Source: a virus (lineage: Duplodnaviria; Caudoviricetes). From it: DNA of 36,349 bases. Within the stretch, counting starts at the first letter, position 1, and the number at the start of each line of letters is the position of its first letter. The stretch spans positions 1-36,349 of the IMG/VR virus record IMGVR_UViG_3300028384_000615; one strand, 5' to 3'. Under the pieces are notes generated by a model, which did not search any database, was not told where the DNA came from, and saw only the letters and a list, made by a program, of their open reading frames with translations. Positions 1 through 31,448 of the stretch are shown in pieces. The translations under genes were made by a program, and so were the position numbers.

Positions 1-3000
1 GTAGTACCGGTCTTATACCAATCAGTGTCAGATACATCCCCGCCATCAATAATGTTATCTTTATATCTGCTATAACCACCAAAGCGTAGTTCAAGTTCTA
101 TTGCTTCATAGATGTCAACGTCAGTATCAGCTACTTCACCATATGGATACACACGTTCTGTTTCACGTATCTTTGTGTGATATGGTTTTGTTTCGTTCAC
201 ATAATCAATGATATCATTATAGTTGTCATTCTGATAAATTGCATATTGACGTAGAGGTTTGTTCATCATAAACAAGTCGATATAACTTGTCTTGAATATC
301 CAGTCTGGGAAATTATTTTCAGTATACATATAGTCAATCATATCAAAGAACATATTTTTAATAAATTTATTGTCTGCATATGTATAAAGCATATTGATTA
401 GTTCATAAGTTTGTACTGCATACATATTGTTATAGTACGTTGTGATTTCATTTTCAATTGTTGTATCAAAGTTAGGATATTGTAAACGAAGTGTCCCGTT
501 CTCTTTGTGAACTAATCTTAGATTACCATTATATTCGAAATAATACTCTGCGTTATCTTTAATATCAACCTTAAACGATTGTGTACCAGACTTAAACATT
601 TTAATCATATCAAAAGTTCGTGTCTTTGATAGATATTCATACCTTTTAATGATATCATAATCAGAAGATATAGCCCAGTTTTCTGTCTGTAATATTCCGT
701 TACCAGGCACAATATATTCACCAAAGAATGGAAATTCTTTGACTAATAGTTTTCTTTTCATGTAATCATTGATGATGGAAGCAAAGTTATTTCTCGCATC
801 AACTACATTGTTAAACCATCCAGTCTGTGGTATTATTTTATAAACTCTAACAATATCACCAGAAGTGATTGTAGTATCACTTATTAACAATTCATCATTA
901 TTGAAACTTACATTAAAAATGCCCAACACTTCTGAATTAACTGATACAACTGAATTCAACAAAGAAAGTCCAAATAGCGTGTCGTCAATAAAATTAACTT
1001 GATCTTCTTCTGCTACAAATACTTTAACTTCTTCTACTTTACCACCTATAATACTATCTTTTAAACCATCAAGATATGATTTTTCTATAGGAGTACTACT
1101 ATTTCTAGAAACCATATGCCAATCAACATGCTTGTTTTCAATGTCTAAACTATTTTGTTTATATACCGAGTATTTGATCTGGTCGGCACTTAGTAGTGTA
1201 TTGTTACTAGTAATAATTGTTCTATCATCTATAGGAATGAATTTATTAGTAACCCCGCCAGATTCAATTAACATTTTTATTTCATCAATTGTATATTCTT
1301 TTTCTGTTGCATCTATACCAATCGTAGACCAGTAATAATATTTGGTAATACTTCTATTCGTGTCTGTATCCCAACGGGTCTCGGTGTTAAACCAAGACAC
1401 GTCTTCTGGTACACTATTAGAAGACTTCCATTGCTTTATAGTAACTGTTGATCCAGGAACTAATTTTCCCCAATACCTTTTCACATAATCAACATTTATA
1501 TTACCATTCATATCACCATAATCGTTATATCTGTAATAACGGGCAGATTTAGTATCCCACCAAATCTCACCAACGTGTTCATCTAACCACAAATCATTAC
1601 TATATTCATCATCGTATTTTGCTGGATCTTGCCAATCAACATAATCGATATCTTTGCCAATTGACCCCGGAATCTTCATATTTAATGGATCGAACAATTG
1701 ATATGTCCAGAAAGTTTCACCATCTTTTAAAACCATTCTTTTAATATCTGATATGTCTACTAACCTATCTACCTGTCTAGCAATTTTATTTGAATTACTA
1801 TTAGATGTATTATAATCTAATATAGCCCAACCATTACCCAAGTCTTTATAGTCATCTGCCCAAATTTTAGTATTACTATTAATACCTAAGTCTGCAATAA
1901 AGTCATCATATGATGAATATACGTAATTAGGAGTATATCTAACTGATTTCCAACGCATGATTTTAAAATTAGCATTGCTTTTAACACTAGAATATGTGCT
2001 ATAGATACCTATTTTATCTAACATACTCTGTTCTGTGCCAGTGAAAGACATAGATGTACTATTACTAGTGAAAATCATTCTACCATCACTGGATACCGAG
2101 ACAGCCACATCGTTTGAAATCTGATTAATCTGTTCTTTAAATAATTGAACTGATGAAGATGATGTGTTTATATTATTATAATTTCCAGTTGCAATTCCAA
2201 GATCATCCCATGGATTTCCTACATAGTTGAATAGTTCTACTCGTTTTGCGGATGACGTTATTACTACACGATCTGAGCCTGCATATTTTTCAGCACGTGT
2301 GTTAGAAGGTAAAACACTATTAATATCTTCTATAATTGTTTCAATAGATTTAACTGTTTTTTTACCATCTGATGACAGAATACCAAGTCTATTCAACGCA
2401 CCATCTGTTAATTCAGCTATTTCTAATTCCGGACCATCGAATGTAATTGACACCGAGTTACCAATATTTACGGCGCTAACTGATGGAATTGACGCTGTGT
2501 TTATCTGATTAGCAATACTTGTTGCTGTTGGATCAGTAGTCGCATCATACTCTTTTGGGTTAAATCCCAACACTGTTGCAAGATCGCCACCCAATAAAAG
2601 ATAATCATCATCGGATGTAATATTAAGTTTATTATTACCATCAATTGCAGACGTGATAAATGAAACGCTTTGTAATTGTTCATTGATGCCTAATAGTTTA
2701 CTCTTGACAAGGAAATCTGTTGTGTGTAACCCCAAATCTTCAAGTGCAGTGCCGGAAAATTCTATATAGGATGCACCTGTTACTAAGTTAATTTTATTAT
2801 CTACAATTTCAGCAGTAGCCGGAGCGCCTGATGCGTTTATCGCCGAAACAATATCATTTATTTCTAAAACTTGCGGAACGGATATCGCCTTCAATTCTAC
2901 TGAAAGATTTATAAAAGAATCATCACCAATAGCATCCTCTACTGGAGTATTAAACGTTATCGTCCCATTAGAATGTACATAATCGCTTGGTTGTATTTCA

Positions 3001-6000
3001 TATACTGGATCAATACCGTTGTCTACAGTTATTATTCCTGGCTCGAAGTACGTCATATTATTTGATAAGGATATTGCTGTCACAGGCGTTCCCTCAAACG
3101 GAAACGATTCTGTAGTATCCTGCTTCAATATAGGTTCTGGTATTTCTAATCTTGTAGGAATGTTATTGATATATAAAGTCTTAGTACTACTAATAGTAGG
3201 ATTTTCTATTGTACCTTCAACTATTATGTCACTAGTTGTAACAGATGCAGTGGTTACGCCATTTGATACAGTCATAGTAAGATCAGAATTCATTACAGAA
3301 TCTAAATCTGCACTAGATGTTGCAGAAATAGAAGTTTGTGCGCTATAGTCTACTGTTATTTCAACGCCGTTGATACTAATAATATCACCAGTAATACTGC
3401 TTACTGTATTATCACCTGTAACTGAGGTGCCTCTAAAACGCACATCAGTTGATGAATTTAATATGTTGTTATTCTCATCATAGACAATAATTCTTGCTTC
3501 TTCGCCGACAGTAATAAATGGATCCGTAGCTGCACCTTCGCCGCCAATCGTTAAACCAAAATTAGTACTATCGGACGAAGAATTATAAGTGTAGACGTTA
3601 TCATTAATTGTCAATCTCTCACCATCGGCAAACAATGGATTAGAAACTGAACCGATTGCTTCTACACCGCTATCATCTGGCGTAGGAACATAAACAGAAT
3701 TATCTGTAGTTTCATCGATTTCAACTATGAAAGGTTCATATTCAGTGTCAAAAACAAGATACTCATAAATTACTTGTCCGCCTTGATTTTTTTCACCATC
3801 ATCAACTAAGTTAAAATATCCGTTAACGTTAGGATCGATTTCAATAGAGTTAATTTTTAAGAATACAGGCTCATCAATCGTAATTTCATTCGTTAAACCA
3901 ACATAAAGCTGGCCATCAGATGTTTCACCAATATATGCTATTTCTGCGACTTCGGATAGTCTTTTGACATCCCATTCTCTATCATCATCAAAGCGTATCC
4001 AAGCCAAATCACCTTCATAAAATGTACTACGTATTGTATTTTCAAGAATAGTGTTGTTTCTAACAACATAGTTAACATCATTAGGGTCAACATAACCAGA
4101 TGTCATTATAGGCGCAGTTCTGTAATGATTACTCGAACTTAGCTTAAATTTATCGTTTTCATCCCATTGAATAACAAAAGGATCGCTATCAATATCATTA
4201 CGATTAATCGTCTTACTTATGATACTTCTATTTTTTGTTTTACCATACTCATCAATTTTAAATGCCCAAATTTCATCATGCTTAGTGTCAGAGAAATTTG
4301 AATTCTTATTGATTACTCGGTCAATACTTTGCTTTGTACCTTTACCTGCAAGAAATCCTTTATAGAATTCAACTTGTGATTCTCTATCTACAAAATGATT
4401 CGTTAAATAAGTTCTAGGTGTAAATCCAAGCTGAGATTCTTTTAGTTTATTAGTAATTTCAAGTGACTGATCTACTAACGTATCTCTATAATACCTAGTA
4501 TCTTCAATCATTGTTTCGAAGTTAGGCAGTAATTTACCACCATTAACTATATAACCGTCGGCTGCAAGTGTACCGTCCCAGTTTCTAGTTCTATTACAAT
4601 CTATCAACATTCTTAGATTTCTATCGTGTGTCAAAGGATTATAAATTACATCACCAAATGAATCTTCTCTATCAATAACAATCGCATGTTCGATATCTCT
4701 TATGTCCATCTTGATACCGTAAATAGGCACATTAGATTCCCAAAGTATACTACCGCCTTCCATATTGAAGGTAATATTTTCTTTACGAATTTGTAGACCT
4801 TCGCTATCCACAACATTAAAATAATTCTTATTTGTGTTACTTGTAATACTTGCAACGCCGTAAGGAGTATTAAACTTACCTGACTTTAACACGGGTGTTA
4901 AAGTAATGTATTCGCCCACGTTTCTACGTTCACGTGACCAGTTTAAAAACTCTACTAATAATGTTTCAAAATCAATGATTTCACTGAACTCATCAATGTC
5001 CGAGAAATCCCAACCGACTGCTTTTAGATATTCTTGATAGCCTACAAAAAGTTGTGCAACCTCATCATATGTTTCTAATATGTCACCATAATTATGAAGT
5101 TTTAGTTGGTCTGGTAGCACATCTTTGTATCCATTTGCATCAACAGTGTTGACAACTGGCCATTCTTTTAAAAGTTTCCAGTTACCGTCCGATAAATCAT
5201 TGTCGAAACTTTCAGTTGCCTGATGGTCATACAGGGCGATGTAAGGTTTATTATTGTAAACTGCATATAAATCTTGTTTGTAATACTCGCCTGCTGTCCA
5301 TTGCTTTAAGTTTGCTAAATCACCATCTGATGACCAATGTTTTGCACCTGATGTTTTGTCCCAATCTAATGTGTAGAATACTGGATTAAAGTCATCATAT
5401 CCTGATATACGATAACCAAACTTCTTAATATTAGGTTGTGAAATTAGAATCCATGCGCTATAATCAAAGTACGCAGATTCAGATATTTTGTCTATTTCGT
5501 TTTGTGTCTGACTGGTTACTTTTCTCTTGTAATATTTACCATCATTTTGACGTAATACTACATCACCAGGTTCATATTGTGCAGTGTCTAATACAGAATA
5601 ATAAGGATACTGTTCATCTAATGAAACTTTCTCAATAATAATAGCTGAAAAACTTTCTGTACGATTTGGTTCACCAGAATGAATGACTAGTTCGTAATTA
5701 TCTTTTGGTATTTCTGAGTTACTTGTGTTAGAAAAAGAATTTCTCTCAGAGAATAATTTAAAGTTATTTACGAAACCACCTAGCTTAGATCCTAATTTAA
5801 ACTCATAACTCTCACGTGTAGATACAATCGCATCAGTGTTGTAACCTTCACGTTTATTATAAAATTCTACTATTGTCTGGATATCAGCATCATACAAATC
5901 TAAAATCTTAAATGGTTTTAGAAGTACCTTCATTGCAAATTCAATAAATGGATACTCTGAACTTCTACGCCATGCAAGTTCTTCTGGTGATCCGTCACCG

Positions 6001-14307: not shown

Positions 14308-14713
14308 AGAACAGCAACTAGAAATGTTTTTCGAAGATGTTGCACCAGAACTAATCATTGAAGAAGATATTATGAATACATTTGATATTCATCCTGATTG
14401 GAATGACTTAGATGTAACATACACTGTTGAATACAATGACACTATGACACCAATCACACTTGAAGAATTTGATACAATGGTGGCACCTGCTTGGACTGGC
14501 GTGTCAGAAGCAGAAAAGCGTGACTGGGTTATGTGGGAAGAAACAAAACCCTTGACAACAACAACCGAAGCTGATATGTTACGTAAAGAGATTCGTGAAC
14601 TTAATGAAACTCTGTATTCGCAATACAAACGTGTTGCTGAACTTACAGAAGAAGTTAATGAACTGAAGGCTCGTCTAGAACAGAAACTACATACAAACAC
14701 AAGGACTTTTTAA
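14294..14713 (+). CDS. Hypothetical acidic protein with C-terminal coiled coil
   Basis: 139-aa ORF with GGAGG RBS, coupled to both neighbours; heptad pattern [12 protein letters not shown]...[13 protein letters not shown]. Confidence 0.75.
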
Positions 14714-15339
14714 TGCCTAATCTAGTACCAATGGTCGTTGATCAAACTGCTAACGGTGAACGCAGTTATGATATCTTTTCACGTTTACTTAAAGAACGTG
14801 TCATCTTTTTGACAGGTGAAGTAAATGATTATCAAGCTGATTTACTATGCGCACAATTGCTTTTCTTAGAAGCAGAAAACCCAGACAAAGATATTCATTT
14901 CTATATCAATTCGCCGGGTGGTTCTGTAACATCAGGTCTTGCGATCTATGACACAATGCAATTCATCAAGCCAGATGTATCAACAACAGTCATTGGTCAA
15001 GCAGCGTCAATGGGTTCACTATTAGCACAAGCGGGTGCAGTGGGTAAACGTTATGTTCTTCCTAACTCTCGTACAATGATTCACCGTGTGTCAAGTGGAA
15101 CACGTGGCACTGGTGGTTCAGTTCATGTACAAGAAATGGAAATGGAAGATAACATTCGTCACCTACAGGAAGCAAAAGAACTTAACAAACGTCTTACAGA
15201 ATTGTATGTAAATCATAACAGTTCAGGTAAAACATACGAAGAACTATTCGAAACAATGAAGTTCGACACATTCTTACGTGCTGAGGATGCAGTTGCTTGG
15301 GGTCTTGCTGATAAAGTAATGAATGAACGTCCTGCTTAA
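14713..15339 (+). CDS. clpP: ATP-dependent Clp protease proteolytic subunit
   Basis: LVPMVV...[46 protein letters not shown] (Ser), MIH (His), DTF (Asp). Confidence 0.96.
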
Positions 15340-21000: not shown

Positions 21001-22655
21001 AGAACCGCATCAGGTTGGTTCTGAAATAAAACTGTTCTTTTTATGCCCAGATAATATGTTACATCGTGTCCTCTAGAATTAGTTAGAATATTGAGTCCGC
21101 CTGGCTTGGGGACTGCCATCGGAACAACATTAACAATTGAAGAAAATGTATCACTCTGTTCTGTCAATCTTTCTCTCATCATCAATGATTGGTTAATTAT
21201 ATCTGCGATAATATCGTAAACATTAGAACCCACTGAAACATTACCAGATTGCTGTGATATATTAAGGTCTCCGCTACGTGACGCAACACTATTTGTTGCA
21301 CCACTTAAATTAGGATTAGGGCCGTTCATTTCTGATCCCATAAATTCTTCGAAATCAGGATCGACTTCAAATGTATATGTATTAATATACTTTTCGCCGT
21401 TTTCGCCGTTACCTTGGAAGTTTTGCATTCTTATGACATTGTTAAGCTCATTTATGAAATCATCTAGCGTATCTCTTAATGTTTCTTTAATTTTAAACTG
21501 GAATGGATAATCAATCTGATTTATATCCTGAGAAAAGGATTTTTGTAAAATTATAGTACCATACAACATTGTTGCTGTGCCTCTAGCATCAGTACTAGTT
21601 TGTAAATCAGCGAAATCAGATATTTTAAATGGCAATACTTTAGTTGCTTTAAGATGTTCAGGTTGATTATTTTTATATCCTAGGAAGTTAACTTTTATGT
21701 ACCAAGTAGCATCATGAATACTTGTGTATCCCATTAGAATGGCTGCGTTTTGTAAACTGTCATTTAGACTTGTATTACCAACTTGCACTAAATTAAAATT
21801 TAACGATGTCGCAGTACCAGACATCCTTGCGCCAGATTGAGATCCTGTACCTAAACTCTGTACACTCAAGTCTTGTATATTAAATTCTGTAGTCACGCCG
21901 GTTTTTGCAATTATGACTCTTTTTGTTCCATTTGGAGGCCATGCGTCTGTTGCAACATCATCTAGGCTATAATCATCTATAATAAATCTACTAGAAGTTA
22001 ATTCGTCAACTATAAAAAATTCTAATGTATATGTATAATTTTCAAATTCGTCTACTTCATTATCCCAGAAGTTATCATTTGCCTCAGCTATTTGCCATAG
22101 ATCAGCGGTATTATTGGCTGCTGCAAAATCACTAGTGTTATTTGCAACGCCTGTTGCTCCCGCACCTGTTGCTCCTCCTGCTAATCCGCCATTTCCTTCT
22201 ACTCCCACCACTGCGCCTTCAGGTGGTAATTCAGGAGATCCACCGCCAAATAATGTATGTTCAGCTTGTCTTCGTCTTACTAGACCGTCTAATGTCTGAC
22301 CACCTGCTTTGTTGTATTCTAATATTTTTCTTGAAATTTCTGCTTTAGAACGAGTACCATTTGCAGTCAGCCCATCTATACTGCCGATATTATATGCAAA
22401 ACTAATTAAGGCAGCACGTTCATTTGGCGTCCAATTGTATCTACTATTATATCTGTCTACACTTTCTTCGTATCTTCCTAATTGCTGCCTTAACATAGAC
22501 CTTGCCTCCGATTGAGACACTCGGATATTTGGAGGGTTTGATCTATCTCTACTACCGGCATATGACCCGTAGCCTATCGACCATTGGTGATAATCCCAAT
22601 AAGGTTCTGGGGCAAACCCCTCAAATCTAGCAATTAAATCTACATGGTCTGTCAT
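18063..22655 (-). CDS. Baseplate hub protein (gp27/gp44-like) with N-terminal GH24 lysozyme
   Basis: N-terminal IARFEGF...YWD...SIGYG...AALISFAYNIG...GLVRRRQAE lysozyme; later ITIKGDPFWL...YLVKNITSSFSGGMFTQVLEM hub-type motifs. Confidence 0.75.
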   Translation of the reverse strand: MTDHVDLIARFEGFAPEPYWDYHQWSIGYGSYAGSRDRSNPPNIRVSQSEARSMLRQQLGRYEESVDRYNSRYNWTPNERAALISFAYNIGSIDGLTANGTRSKAEISRKILEYNKAGGQTLDGLVRRRQAEHTLFGGGSPELPPEGAVVGVEGNGGLAGGATGAGATGVANNTSDFAAANNTADLWQIAEANDNFWDNEVDEFENYTYTLEFFIVDELTSSRFIIDDYSLDDVATDAWPPNGTKRVIIAKTGVTTEFNIQDLSVQSLGTGSQSGARMSGTATSLNFNLVQVGNTSLNDSLQNAAILMGYTSIHDATWYIKVNFLGYKNNQPEHLKATKVLPFKISDFADLQTSTDARGTATMLYGTIILQKSFSQDINQIDYPFQFKIKETLRDTLDDFINELNNVIRMQNFQGNGENGEKYINTYTFEVDPDFEEFMGSEMNGPNPNLSGATNSVASRSGDLNISQQSGNVSVGSNVYDIIADIINQSLMMRERLTEQSDTFSSIVNVVPMAVPKPGGLNILTNSRGHDVTYYLGIKRTVLFQNQPDAVLKAQNSAKMVDEIFTQGRCRKRYYYQYTGLNDQILDFQVSLNKQLTKTYVAPTDEFVFANFVNAAGIGDFSISMLNDTAQSAITDARAAQEELTPQLEDASNNLESIRNNLSNEVSSVQNDFVSQVNSSLGISLSRDDIFGDSTSLSDTISLMDSGFGDIGADIASSVLTNNRQARITELLDTVESKTAEVNDLSGQLAAQQSTIDSAMEQGIGALLSERQQETTRRPDENFAAISQSNPNAINGDVVLIEALDTDFVTNLRTEEFNALIDTMLTSPMVFRRAVLPRLQGEQRSGVFRSSDQNDIEVAKQRYYEGLDVDLSMQKLSITIKGDPFWLNNYIPPVSARSTFGVNATSEDFRNDNSLYGGFNYCMIINNKAAGTDELMNIKIANLMIDVYLVKNITSSFSGGMFTQVLEMVKVNFPENFRELNPTIDSTFIEEEPTGNGTSDVPAGQGQGTGAGEGNDSVGVGEGAYKVVTGSGQGRRYQVFDSEGNLVSEGRGPGPNLPFADEYTQTDEIASGGNPANQIDFGSGIPGGAFSADDANTLLSSDEPFDPRGSKFNTFGDRTGMTPRSVSTEIPANTLTPAEMEQALVIQKEIRRLTTETPLMDMTDTEYARVRQLETALNDIVENSTTGTRGAVRDEVIQREKREELASAQEALAEVEDDLDGFYWTQSGREEDEAQREKLRQDVLASQTENLPYAMQEVKTIVNTETGEREDVPEYLPTSIDKRPIIIPKPDELPDVYIDNGDGTITVEGPPTQNPTVTDSGLDAIDATSLSEDQKQEYFDALESNNGIKVKQFIDSLPTEQQTEILQLEQTQELVKLPGSSVDMSNPAYQNLSENEATQLEAANTVMRNFENQISSLPRVEKSYTFPDGTVETWADPDWQQLQPVPYIDANGDVQTFNPIDYFPSDVNDPTYGYSPTVQGRMMQGLADNFPALEVGKYGGEEESSSGKLRTEIAGSGFIVAEDKEQEDSE

Positions 22656-27938: not shown

Positions 27939-28115
27939 ATGACGCTAAATGAACAGATCCAAGAACAAATGGATATCTATCTAAAGGAATCAGAAGCATT
28001 CGAAACTAAAGGTGTTAAGGCGGCCGCTGCACGTGCCCGCAAAGCACTTGGCGAATTAGGTAAACTTACAAAAGCACGCCGTGCAGAAATTCAAGAAAAA
28101 AAGAATAATATGTAA
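27939..28115 (+). CDS. Histone H1-like (Hc1-family) DNA-binding protein, 58 aa (not in ORF track)
   Basis: AGGAG RBS; MTLNEQIQEQMDIYLKESEAFETKGVKAAAARARKALGELGKLTKARRAEIQEKKNNM; KG.KAA..RARK...EL....K..R pattern of the Hc1 N-terminal domain. Confidence 0.8.
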   Translation: MTLNEQIQEQMDIYLKESEAFETKGVKAAAARARKALGELGKLTKARRAEIQEKKNNM

Positions 28116-28123
28116 AAAAGTTA

Positions 28124-28152
28124 TTGACATTCGTGTTCTAATTTGCTATATT
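28124..28152 (+). promoter_or_regulatory. sigma70-type promoter with extended -10
   Basis: TTGACA (28124-28129), 17 bp, TGc-TATATT (28147-28152). Confidence 0.8.
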
Positions 28153-28156
28153 AGTA

Positions 28157-28282
28157 TTAATAGGGAAGTCAACATCTCTTGTGTCTCCTCTCTCAACCTC
28201 TCTCAACAACTTGAGGTCTAGACTTCACTATTAAAAACAGAGCATGAACTTTACCCGGCTACTTAGGTAGTCGGGTTTTTTT
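28157..28282 (+). ncRNA. Candidate small regulatory RNA (~125 nt) with CU-rich tandem repeat
   Basis: Bounded by a sigma70 promoter and a terminator; no ORF longer than about 8 codons from an ATG; closing stem TTAATAG-G-GAAGTC/GACTTC-A-CTATTAA; internal CCTCTCTCAA x2. Confidence 0.65.
28253..28282 (+). terminator. Intrinsic terminator
   Basis: ACCCGGCTAC-TTAG-GTAGTCGGGT stem followed by a T run. Confidence 0.9.
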
Positions 28283-28317
28283 CTGAATAAATAATACTAT
28301 CAAGGAGGATTAGATTT

Positions 28318-28491
28318 ATGAGTATTACAGGATTTCCGGCAAAGAGATCGGATGAAGAAAAAGCTGAAATGGAAAAGGCAATGGCAGAGTTTCTTAAAAA
28401 GGGCGGAAAGATTAAGAAACTAGAAGAAGGCGAACACACCGAAGCTAAAGATATGAAGTATAAATTTAGAAGGCCTGCCAATAAGAAATGA
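28318..28491 (+). CDS. SutA-like RNA-polymerase-binding protein, 57 aa (not in ORF track)
   Basis: AAGGAGG RBS, preceded by late-like AATAAATA (28286-28293); MSITGFPAKRSDEEKAEMEKAMAEFLKKGGKIKKLEEG...; the AM.EFL..GGK[IV] helix resembles the Pseudomonas SutA core. Confidence 0.65.
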   Translation: MSITGFPAKRSDEEKAEMEKAMAEFLKKGGKIKKLEEGEHTEAKDMKYKFRRPANKK

Positions 28492-29057: not shown

Positions 29058-29296
29058 ACATAAGCCTTAGCAAGTTCCTAGAATGGGCACAATTATTCAC
29101 AGGCTGTACAGCCGCACTTATTGTATCCGCTAATCTAGGAGACACTTGGGTTTTCTGGGCTATGTGCTTATTTTTTATAAAAGATTCTATGATGGGGATA
29201 TTTGCGTATATCAACAAGTATCCCGGTATTGTAATGTCTAGTGCAATATACGTTCCTATAGATTTGCTAGGTATCTATAGATGGTGGCTTTTTTAA
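29054..29296 (+). CDS. Small three-helix membrane protein (possible PnuC-like half transporter)
   Basis: 80 aa, three hydrophobic segments, ends GIYRWW; ATGA-type overlap with the upstream gene. Confidence 0.55.
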   Translation: MNISLSKFLEWAQLFTGCTAALIVSANLGDTWVFWAMCLFFIKDSMMGIFAYINKYPGIVMSSAIYVPIDLLGIYRWWLF

Positions 29297-29733
29297 TCTA
29301 GCTTTTTTCTATTACTTTCCAAATATTCTTTAAGAACTTTAGAACTACCAATTCTTACATTGATGATACCGTTGTAGTATTCATCTGTTTCCAGTACACG
29401 CCTGTCGAATTGCTCTTTTGCTTCCATGTAACTTAGGGCGCCACGACTCGGACAATAGTGTAGTATTTCCCTCATAAATTTATCAGCGCCTAGTTCCTCT
29501 ACATCCCGGTTAAGATGCTCAGAAGAACCCCAATACTCACGCCAATCGCTTTCCTTAAACCCACGTCTTTTGTTTTTCTTCCCTTTAAGAGGTGGTTTTG
29601 TTGTTTTAAAACGGGCTAATTTCTTACCTACATATTTTCTGTTATTTGTTAAATTAGTAATCAGATAGACAAATCCCTCACAATCATCAGGTAATTCATT
29701 TACTATCTCATTTCTATATGTCCATTCGCTCAT
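29293..29733 (-). CDS. GIY-YIG family endonuclease (Seg-like, catalytic domain only)
   Basis: GFVYLITNLTNNRKYVGKK motif, conserved E (MEAKEQ) and YYN; 146 aa with no appended DNA-binding repeats. Confidence 0.88.
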   Translation of the reverse strand: MSEWTYRNEIVNELPDDCEGFVYLITNLTNNRKYVGKKLARFKTTKPPLKGKKNKRRGFKESDWREYWGSSEHLNRDVEELGADKFMREILHYCPSRGALSYMEAKEQFDRRVLETDEYYNGIINVRIGSSKVLKEYLESNRKKLD

Positions 29734-29833
29734 ATATTAATCATTTCTAGATATCTTATAAGGTCTAAAGACCTAAAACTTCATAAATCTCATTTCGCTT
29801 TCGCTCAACCGATTTATTCTGTTTTTCTTTTCT

Positions 29834-29849
29834 CATATATTTATATATG
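29834..29849 (-). promoter_or_regulatory. T4-type late promoter TATAAATA inside a perfect inverted repeat
   Basis: Minus-strand TATAAATA at 29845-29838 within CATATAT-TT-ATATATG, about 105 nt upstream of the GIY-YIG start. Confidence 0.55.
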
Positions 29850-29877
29850 GATAATTTATAAGATATATCTTTATTAT

Positions 29878-30295
29878 TTGCCTGCGGCTGAGCCACAATT
29901 GCCCTGTTGCCAGGACAACTGCAAAAATGGTACGGTCTTGCCATAGCTTCATCGCCTCTGTTTTAGAGCTAGTAGCCAGTAACTACGGGGTCGGTTGACG
30001 ATTCCCCCTTCACTCAGTATTGCTCCTTTCGGATCAACGGCACCTCACGATATCCTAAACAGACAAAATATCATGTAAGTCGATAGTATTATAGTAATCT
30101 ATCATCGGTTATATATTATAAACTGGTCAACCACAGCCTTTGGAGCCATGGTCGTTTTGAATTCTGAACACTCTTATGTGTGGTTACGAGAAGAATAAGG
30201 GAGTTCGTCCCCTCTAGTCTGACGGCAACAGTAACTACACTGGCAGTCTCAATCCCGGATTGGCAACCCAATCAACAGTCCACTATGTACGGATA
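29878..30295 (-). ncRNA. Candidate large structured non-coding RNA of unknown class
   Basis: No credible ORF; visibly more GC-rich than its flanks; several hairpins whose G-U pairs and GNRA loops (GAAA, GCAA) form only on the minus strand. Confidence 0.65.
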
Positions 30296-30380
30296 TATTA
30301 GTCATTTTCATTGTATTAGCCTTTTGATTGCCTATATTAGATTTGTATTAGTTGTAGAGCGTGAAATTTATATTAGCCTT
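30294..30380. repeat. Five copies of TRTATTAG (CTAATAYA on the minus strand)
   Basis: TATTAG cores at 30296, 30314, 30335, 30346 and 30371; two copies extend to TATTAGCCTT. Confidence 0.8.
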
Positions 30381-30597
30381 AAAGTATTGGTACACCAGCT
30401 TTCTTGCTCATTTCATAGTTTTCTCCTATGATTTCATTAAGATGCTTAATATGTCCCAATGGCATATCGTGTAGTTCAGATATACTGACCCCACCTCTCA
30501 TATACCAAGATAACTTTAACAGATTCTTATGTATCTTGTCAAGACTTTTTTCGTATTTTTCTTGTTTTTCTTGAATTTCTTCATGGCTGGCATTCAT
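30379..30597 (-). CDS. Small baseplate-hub/tail assembly protein (gp51-like or lambda T-like C-terminal extension)
   Basis: 72 aa, LSWYMRGGVSISELHDMP motif; overlaps the upstream stop (TGATG) in the -1 frame. Confidence 0.6.
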   Translation of the reverse strand: MNASHEEIQEKQEKYEKSLDKIHKNLLKLSWYMRGGVSISELHDMPLGHIKHLNEIIGENYEMSKKAGVPIL

Positions 30598-31448
30598 CAG
30601 CCAGTTTTGAAAAAATTTACAGGGTTGACCTCCAGAGCAACCTTTTGTTTGTGTTCACATTCTGGGCAAACGAACTCAAATTCGCTTGATTCTTTTGGTC
30701 GTTTAGAAATTTTTCTAGCGGCCGTGTTTATTTTGTCAATTACGGTAGATGGAACATTGTATAAGAATTCAACAATCATATCGTAATCATCTACTGTGCC
30801 GTCGGGTGTTTCTATTTTGTGGATTACATTTCCTAATAAATCGACATTTAATGACGCAATTTTCTTAAAACTAGAATATAATGTTTTCGCTATTTTACTT
30901 TCGTCCTTACCTTCTAAATCTTCATTTCCGGCATTATTTGACACATTTGCAATAATTCTTTTTTGTTCTAATTCGATAAGAGAAAGTCTAGTTATACTTT
31001 CTATCGTTGATGGTTTTATGAAAATTTTCAAATCATCGTATAGAATAGGTTCTATATTATCTAATTCTGGAAACCTATTTAAAATATAGTTGATATCGAT
31101 ATTAAAATCATTTTTTTCTTCACATTTTTCACATGTATGTGTGTGTACTAACTCTTTGCCATATGTAGCATATTGTATAGCTAGGTAAAGTGCTTCGGCA
31201 TCTATATTTGATAACAATCTTGGATTTGGAATGTCGGGAACACAGCTTTCTATTACACTTATTAATGCTTCCCCATTAAGAAGTGCCTCTGGATTTTTCA
31301 TAGTTATCTCATCGATTGCTGTCATTGGTCTAACACCAACTTCATCAAGCACTGTCTGTGGTATTTCTGGATTGAATTTACCGCCTGTAGGTAATTTAAT
31401 ATATATTCCAGGCTTTCTGAAATATTTGGTTAATATATTTTTTGTCAT
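30597..31448 (-). CDS. gp26: Baseplate hub assembly chaperone, gp26-like
   Basis: IYIKLPTGG...VRPMTAIDE...D.EALYLAI...TYG, two CxxC pairs, C-terminal NFF. Confidence 0.75.
   Translation of the reverse strand: MTKNILTKYFRKPGIYIKLPTGGKFNPEIPQTVLDEVGVRPMTAIDEITMKNPEALLNGEALISVIESCVPDIPNPRLLSNIDAEALYLAIQYATYGKELVHTHTCEKCEEKNDFNIDINYILNRFPELDNIEPILYDDLKIFIKPSTIESITRLSLIELEQKRIIANVSNNAGNEDLEGKDESKIAKTLYSSFKKIASLNVDLLGNVIHKIETPDGTVDDYDMIVEFLYNVPSTVIDKINTAARKISKRPKESSEFEFVCPECEHKQKVALEVNPVNFFKTG

Follow-up and report, generated by a model that had tools for sequence, protein, structure and literature searches.

Large structured RNAs encoded beside a nuclease gene are known from HEARO/omegaRNA with IscB and from the IS110 bridge RNA, in which a loop of the RNA pairs with DNA. 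The element described here differs from these: it gave no Rfam hit in the window and showed no mobile-element ends, it keeps to one place in the genome, and the protein encoded next to it can have any of three unrelated folds. A second system for comparison is ColE1, whose RNA II is ~550 nt long (PMC5043065) and contains an rG stretch that must pair with a dC stretch of the template (PMC4412123). The T4 origins oriF and oriG are described as a promoter followed by an unwinding element, with an R-loop transcript that primes synthesis and with several origins per genome (PMC4412123); the proposed element would share promoter-driven R-loop priming and several origins per genome with them, whereas oriF and oriG use middle-mode promoters and their description in PMC4412123 includes no large structured RNA. 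Finally, Polynucleobacter-1 (RF01718) is an orphan candidate motif reported from Burkholderiales and from fresh water and estuary (Weinberg et al. 2010, PMC2864571). In a search that covered few subscription papers, the original paper was the only one found to name this motif.

The gap beside the baseplate-hub gene

The window (the whole stretch of DNA that was analysed, 36,349 nucleotides) is a 36-kb virus record with an estimated completeness of ~10%, and carries genes for a late sigma factor, gp47, gp46, a baseplate hub and a portal. Its gp46 is nearest to those of PA5oct (52%), Atu_ph07 and Rak2-like jumbo phages, and on sequence the window phage is classed as a Rak2/PA5oct-like jumbo phage. 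A first-pass annotation had pointed to a 645-bp gap without a credible gene (29734-30378), and this gap is present; no other intergenic gap in the part from 8.7 to 36 kb exceeds 202 bp. The features in and around the gap, from the hub gene onwards, are:

30379..31448, minus strand: baseplate-hub gene (283 aa) and the 72-aa ORF downstream of it; fixed genomic landmark of the RNA element
30513..30542, minus strand: sigma70-type promoter, TTGACA-18-TAAAGT with TG, within the upstream 72-aa gene (motif match; predicted transcript start)
30296..30376, minus strand: A-rich leader with five CTAATA copies (3-7 CTAAYA copies in 32/33 relatives, 2 in the truncated one)
29876..30290, minus strand: structured RNA core, ~415 nt (conserved in 33 non-redundant relatives; spanned by RNA-run contigs)
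30166..30206, minus strand: pseudoknot 1, loop 30206-30203 with 30169-30166 (98% paired, C-G/U-A swap, 20 G-U cells)
29957..30063, minus strand: pseudoknot 2, loop near 30063-30057 with 29963-29957 (covarying column 100% paired)
29994..30038, minus strand: pseudoknot 3, GUUGA 30038-30034 with loop UCAAC 29998-29994 (top covarying pair, G-C in 19 and A-U in 14)
29293..29733, minus strand: stand-alone SegE-type GIY-YIG nuclease, 146 aa (PF19835, phrog_447)

A 9-10/12 match to the promoter lies 76-289 nt upstream of the core in 32/33 relatives, the exception being cut by a contig end. Several observations concern the surroundings. AAATTTTTT is found at 30618-30610 (minus), shortly ahead of the hub-gene stop, and the 72-aa ORF follows in another frame. 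After gp46, the plus strand encodes a small histone H1-like Hc1 protein (27939-28115) and a protein with a weak match to the SutA RNA-polymerase-binding domain (28318-28491); in a 202-bp gap (28116-28317, plus), a TTGACA promoter motif is accompanied by a CU-rich stretch and by a hairpin that resembles a terminator. An ART-PolyVal ADP-ribosyltransferase-like gene (PF18760; 28488-29057, plus) looks recently inserted, since it is missing in close relatives such as L002 and is bypassed by one RNA-run contig. The start of a 208-aa ORF (14713-15339, plus) resembles a ClpP protease subunit.

Evidence for an RNA on the minus strand, as the first-pass annotation had proposed, comes from folding, conservation and covariation. 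The whole gap folds better than shuffled sequences on the minus strand (z -3.0) and not on the plus strand (z +0.5), with corresponding values of -2.6 and +0.8 for the core only. Those helix arms of the first-pass annotation that were located sit where it had placed them, and the core 5′ end (30287-30283) is able to pair with 29898-29894. Conservation and covariation, which had been named as a check, were counted in a 22-sequence core alignment with 27 pairs, using shuffles and slid pairings as controls: 97.3% of 594 cells were paired and both sides changed in 11/27 pairs, 0/500 shuffles reached the observed value, and the slid controls were 16-44% paired. The columns that covary most strongly show Watson-Crick swaps. 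Within the core, covariation supports three pseudoknots, and two more long-range pairings are preserved by one-sided changes only. Pseudoknot 2 is out of register in the helix-by-helix column count and is 35% paired there; compared sequence by sequence, its complement is 7.8 nt long, versus 6.4 nt across sequences. G-U cells amount to 369/3343 (11%) in the core and 3/486 (0.6%) in the tail, totals that include P5b, P6, P10 and pseudoknot 2 even though alignment gaps put these out of register (35-67% paired); this contrast would fit a boundary between RNA and DNA.

Finer details of the first-pass fold did not persist among relatives. The 10-mer GUAGUUACUG, noted as occurring twice, does so in just 1/33 relatives and is hence not a conserved repeat, and the switch or long-range contact proposed between CUGUUGCC and GGCAACAG is likewise not conserved, both segments being present in just 7/33. 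In place of the GACUGC/GUAGUU stem, relatives favour a CAGU/ACUG stem as judged by eye. That the RNA matches no tRNA, tmRNA, RNase P or group I/II intron was borne out: Rfam (at the gathering threshold and at E 10) and ARAGORN, run on the window, returned one chance snoRNA hit and nothing else, and blastn of the gap against cultured phages gave no match. The gap holds a conserved element with several pseudoknots, and this element is very likely an RNA.

Relatives, Polynucleobacter-1 and cultured phages

The same element lies upstream of the nuclease in 18/80 loci fetched by means of the nuclease (identity 66-93%), and a 21-nt motif from it retrieves 75 loci, nearly all at the hub locus. The 88 complete elements reduce to 48 distinct sequences and to 33 below 96% identity, which form the clade A set, clade A being the window's own; clade B comprises 11 elements, and the third is the Polynucleobacter-1 clade. 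As the relatives are not independent, counts over them overstate the number of events. A single copy was seen in each of three clade-A fragments, and CTAATA-type leader repeats occur in clade B too. Element orientation in the window's clade is inverted relative to other clades, and in 41/56 GIY loci examined an element of similar appearance is found on the downstream side of the gene rather than upstream.

Sequence methods bridge the clades poorly. A covariance model of the window clade (R1) gave no significant match in 15 sources, comprising other clades, cultured phages and ColE1 (best E 0.8), and a strict core descriptor matched 5/16 elements, the window and L051 among these. With nhmmer, clade A was linked, among other clades, to L058 and L063 only (E 1e-4 and 3e-4), and a profile built from GAP32 missed the marine elements. 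Since the covariance model and the strict descriptor fail across clades, evidence from PA5oct and GAP32 transfers to the window only via position, layout and motif likeness.

Polynucleobacter-1 occupies the same phage locus as the window element, with gp46, the GIY-YIG gene and the baseplate hub as shared genomic context. RF01718 was found in L051 and in 20/20 tested loci with the motif's 3′ core, itself present in ~740 viral stretches, and its match covers the 5′ portion of these elements. Its elements have the repeat, hairpin and tail layout of the window. Judged by eye, pseudoknot 3 seems to be common to the window RNA and the long Polynucleobacter-1 representatives, and the original 16-sequence alignment continues into a core, GCCGUUG ... 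YAACCG, that looks like that of the window and has a pseudoknot between a loop and a distal segment. The order differs: the Polynucleobacter-1 RNA is downstream of the GIY-YIG gene, which lies just upstream of it in 55/58 full loci, whereas the window RNA is upstream of that gene. Against RF01718 the window stayed below the 37-bit gathering threshold, with no match even at E 10, and its clade-mate G001 was negative too. Because the Rfam score failed and the covariance model does not bridge the clades, the window element is classed as a variant that is related to the orphan motif by position and layout, and not as a member of RF01718.

In cultured phages the GAP32 element matches 62 records, of which 33 are Escherichia phages, and occurs at 4-5 places per genome in each of the 25 matching records listed. 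GAP32 itself has five full copies at ~35, 99, 177, 261 and 341 kb, 53-85 kb apart, all on the plus strand, which carries most genes. In every GAP32 copy, a promoter motif and a repeat pair occur together with mini-hairpins on the sense strand only; a single copy adjoins a resolvase gene, and the annotated neighbours of the other 4/5 include no such nuclease. In PA5oct, paralogs of the element at the hub locus lie at 12.9 and 246 kb. RF01718 is present as a single copy in each of five aquatic records, among them one with 99% completeness. In cultured phages, the tiny ORFs annotated within the element (L158 5705-6517, PA5oct gp338-gp341; L235 7267-7924) are probably not genes. RNase HI is encoded by GAP32 and SHEFM2K, and PF00075 RNase H was not found in PA5oct or two marine fragments. 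A retron test for reverse transcriptase (PF00078) was negative in 5/5 records, three of them complete, and GC/AT skew in nine genomes or fragments tracked the gene strand, with no origin signal.

Direct repeat, transcript end and tail hairpins

The recurrent layout starts with the promoter and the RNA; two copies of a direct repeat of 5-9 nt flank the last hairpin, and an AT-rich tract and mini-hairpins with GNA or GNNA loops follow. After the core the order is copy 1, a U-run, the hairpin and copy 2, and the corresponding window features are:

29938..29942, minus strand: repeat copy 1 (GGCAA), predicted guide for the template strand at copy 2 (sequence comparison)
29895..29922, minus strand: last RNA hairpin, after the U-run and between the repeat copies (7/7 core pairs kept, 41 G-U cells)
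29878..29882, minus strand: repeat copy 2 (GGCAA), apparent RNA 3′ end (contig ends, ncRNA004 end); predicted R-loop nucleation and priming site
29820..29875, minus strand: AT-rich, length-variable tract with TATAAATA at 29845-29838 (alignment of relatives)
29782..29818, minus strand: hairpin that has tandem G.A pairs and includes the mini-hairpin GC-GAAA-GC (29808-29793); putative single-stranded DNA signal for primosome or primase loading
29761..29774, minus strand: second small perfect tail hairpin (5/5 pairs kept in 33 relatives)

We take TATAAATA to be the T4 late-promoter motif.

The repeat copies vary between lineages and yet match inside each element. The common substring between copies averaged 6.8 nt within elements versus 5.0 nt across them in clade A (n=33), and 7.0 versus 4.3 nt in clade B (n=11), values reached by 0/5000 permutations in either case. 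In the Polynucleobacter-1 clade, both 7-mers were identical in 99/99 elements across 8 types (120 loci less duplicates, truncated loci and loci without anchors), and the four variable positions of the 7-mer were each 100% identical versus 51-82% expected. Copy 1 was enclosed in a loop in 47/99 and copy 2 in 16/99 of these elements. There was no excess of a third strand complementary to the repeat inside the RNA (4.27 vs 4.31; 4.36 vs 4.39), and besides this self-matching repeat no variable, spacer-like segment was seen. Such a pair of identical copies, with no partner inside the RNA, would be needed for pairing with the template DNA strand.

Contigs of four RNA runs from four studies cover the element, though contigs give no strand, ends or level. 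Marine RNA-run contigs from two studies stop at 29878 and 29873, beside copy 2, which is a weak indication as contigs give no true ends, and contig depth drops past copy 2 in three RNA runs, weakly again as these runs have no DNA-run control. In PA5oct, ncRNA004 is listed as 246116-246734 (PMC7318152 Table 1). It is a paralog of the PA5oct hub-locus element, and its copy 1 caps a hairpin. The published end, 246734, coincides with the last base of its copy 2; the tail hairpin follows at a distance of 57 nt, outside the RNA as listed. The hub-locus copy is not among the four ncRNAs given in that table, and ncRNA002 (21951-22401) and ncRNA003 (103065-103668) showed no match to the element.

The strict tail motif is present in 29/33 clade-A relatives, with loops GAA, GGA, GTA, GAAA and GGAA, and missing from 4/33. 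Across nine genomes or fragments (2.70 Mb) it gave 6 hits, 5 of them at the element and one of those 5, at the PA5oct hub locus, on the opposite strand. In a separate count, it was sense in 54/71 versus antisense in 12/71. Mini-hairpins of this kind are described at the G4, St-1 and alpha3 origins and at ssiA, and are far less stable as RNA (PMC13037366).

Comparison with ColE1 brings out likenesses in layout. The window element resembles RNA II in size class and in the order promoter, RNA, origin, being a promoter-driven structured RNA of ~500-600 nt with the promoter given by a motif match. In both, a segment of the RNA is identical to a downstream site, and pairing of this segment with template DNA, as in RNA II, would fit the window repeat. 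In ColE1, which has n'-pas/ssiA, the tandem-GA mini-hairpin motif lies downstream on the RNA-sense strand, as in the window tail; the motif occurs once in the window and once in ColE1, where it is found on the RNA II strand, ~140 nt beyond the point at which the primer region ends, which we take as the position of the RNA/DNA switch. The matching segment is a variable 5-9-mer in the window and a G run in ColE1, and the window element, unlike ColE1, has several pseudoknots and belongs to phages of 290-360 kb with one to five copies. No sequence similarity to ColE1 or RNA II was found, either with Rfam on the window or with the window model on the ColE1 record, and no RNA I-like antisense unit was identified in the element.

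The neighbouring nuclease and the readings of the element

The 146-aa protein was confirmed as a stand-alone SegE-type GIY-YIG nuclease (PF19835, phrog_447; 120 bits vs a cut-off of 25), a bare catalytic domain with a basic insert. A fold search gave weak matches only, the best being the I-TevI catalytic domain (E 0.2), and a PDB sequence search gave none. Short forms of the family are very common, since 7990/7999 scored candidates (80-256 aa only) are relatives. Among the 75 motif loci, GIY-YIG is downstream in 67 (in two after an insert of ~1.2 kb), absent in 7 and truncated in 1. The seven loci without it represent about four distinct sequences, and a PD-(D/E)xK gene occupies the slot in 4/4 of them with ORFs listed (PF24608 confirmed for two). 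In L013 a radical SAM gene (1796-3004) is inserted between RNA element and GIY-YIG gene. Endo VII fills the slot in GAP32, XbC2, SHEFM2K and Kae01, and PD-(D/E)xK in PA5oct; in these cultured relatives the nuclease is on the opposite strand, divergent from a gap of 800-1500 bp. Atu_ph07 and Vibrio phage 2.275.O keep the nuclease next to gp46 with the gap absent at the locus, and Melnitz encodes a 78% identical GIY protein without such a gap, as do more distant homologs. The cyanophage S-WAM2 (L240 763-1172) has a 400-bp unannotated gap upstream of its phrog_447 gene.

GIY-YIG, PF24608 and Endo VII are mutually exclusive, with exactly one full-length member in 14/14 phage genome records (six picked for GIY, eight for gp46), and cultured phages carry resolvase annotations for two of the three folds that replace one another. 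Because unrelated nucleases are swapped in among relatives, the neighbouring nuclease is interchangeable and is probably not the dedicated partner of the RNA. The GIY-YIG protein is probably a replaceable junction resolvase of the gp47-gp46 recombination module, and the family's distribution would fit a housekeeping junction nuclease better than a homing endonuclease.

The first-pass annotation had led with a ribonucleoprotein of this RNA and the nuclease, and had mentioned a replication-primer RNA on the side; the lead idea was not supported, while the side suggestion was adopted as the best reading. On balance we favour a primer: an element that acts on its own DNA by forming an R-loop that would prime replication in the manner of ColE1 RNA II. 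Host RNA polymerase would transcribe from the sigma70 promoter and the RNA would fold during synthesis. Copy 1, often in a hairpin loop, would then pair with the template strand at copy 2, ~60 nt downstream, resulting in a persistent R-loop. The RNA 3′ end at copy 2, produced by termination or RNase H trimming, would prime leading-strand synthesis, and the displaced strand would expose the GNA/GNNA mini-hairpins for primase or helicase loading. Several points count against a primer: skew gives no origin signal and the element is inverted in the window's clade, Atu_ph07 and Vibrio phage 2.275.O have no gap at the locus, the covariance model and the strict descriptor do not bridge the clades, the strict tail motif is on the opposite strand at the PA5oct hub locus and missing from 4/33 clade-A elements, neither an RNA I-like unit nor sequence similarity to ColE1 was found, and no PF00075 RNase H was found in PA5oct or two marine fragments. 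In addition, the GIY-YIG gene stays adjacent in 67/75 and 55/58 loci, and a primer has no obvious need of an architecture with three pseudoknots.

That dense pseudoknotting, with its many invariant unpaired bases, would suit a large ncRNA that stands on its own (as a scaffold, a decoy or a ribozyme, comparable to GOLLD, ROOL or raiA) and in which the repeats are protein-binding or processing sites and the hairpins a 3′ tail or terminator. In three RNA runs, contig depth on the element exceeds that on the hub gene, which points weakly the same way, and multiple GAP32 copies could provide RNA dosage. We consider this unlikely, as it leaves unaccounted for the identity of two freely varying 7-mers, the loss of G-U pairs and the GNA triloops in the tail, and the PA5oct RNA end ahead of the tail. 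The DNA-type mini-hairpins could instead mean that the whole element acts as folded single-stranded DNA, as a single-strand origin or cruciform, and covariation by itself cannot separate RNA from DNA; the 11% G-U cells of the core helices, the conserved upstream promoter and the transcript of the PA5oct paralog make this a very improbable account.

The remaining alternatives give the nuclease a part. A cis R-loop might be cut by the junction-specific phage nuclease or by the RNA itself, leading to recombination-dependent or rolling-circle replication or to packaging. Repeat and tail speak for such cutting as much as for priming, the nuclease is the usual neighbour, and the resolvase annotations and mutual exclusivity in 14/14 genomes add to this; against it, the nuclease remains next to gp46 where the element is absent, 4/5 GAP32 copies are far from it, and in-place inversions preserve adjacency without selection for it, so that we rate cutting as improbable. 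As for a trans-acting ribonucleoprotein in which the RNA guides or activates the GIY-YIG nuclease, akin to HEARO/omegaRNA, RNA and gene are adjacent and co-oriented in both the RNA-then-gene and the gene-then-RNA arrangements, and a bare catalytic domain with a basic insert might be expected of such a protein. An obligate link of the RNA to one nuclease family was not found, however: the GIY gene is absent from 7/75 RNA-motif loci, the same RNA stands beside a PD-(D/E)xK gene and relatives carry other nucleases, insertions such as the radical SAM gene separate RNA and gene, GIY homologs occur without the gap, and the only spacer-like variable segment seen is the self-matching repeat. We therefore give this ribonucleoprotein very little credence.

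The gene swaps also hint at a role as junction resolvase for phrog_447, a protein that is very common in phages and goes under the labels 'NAD synthetase' or 'homing endonuclease'. In a search that covered few subscription papers, none was found on how replication starts in Rak2-like jumbo phages. A bolder proposal, which we hold to be distinctly unlikely, is that these phages have a new class of initiator-free, RNA-guided origins, in which a pseudoknotted RNA would invade its own DNA by a 7-nt loop, the interchangeable junction nuclease or the RNA itself would cut the junction and so free the end for priming, and up to five evenly spaced copies would fire along the genome. If the primer reading is true, the ColE1 mechanism of small plasmids would also operate in viruses of 300 kb, and both the orphan Polynucleobacter-1 motif and PA5oct ncRNA004 would gain a function.
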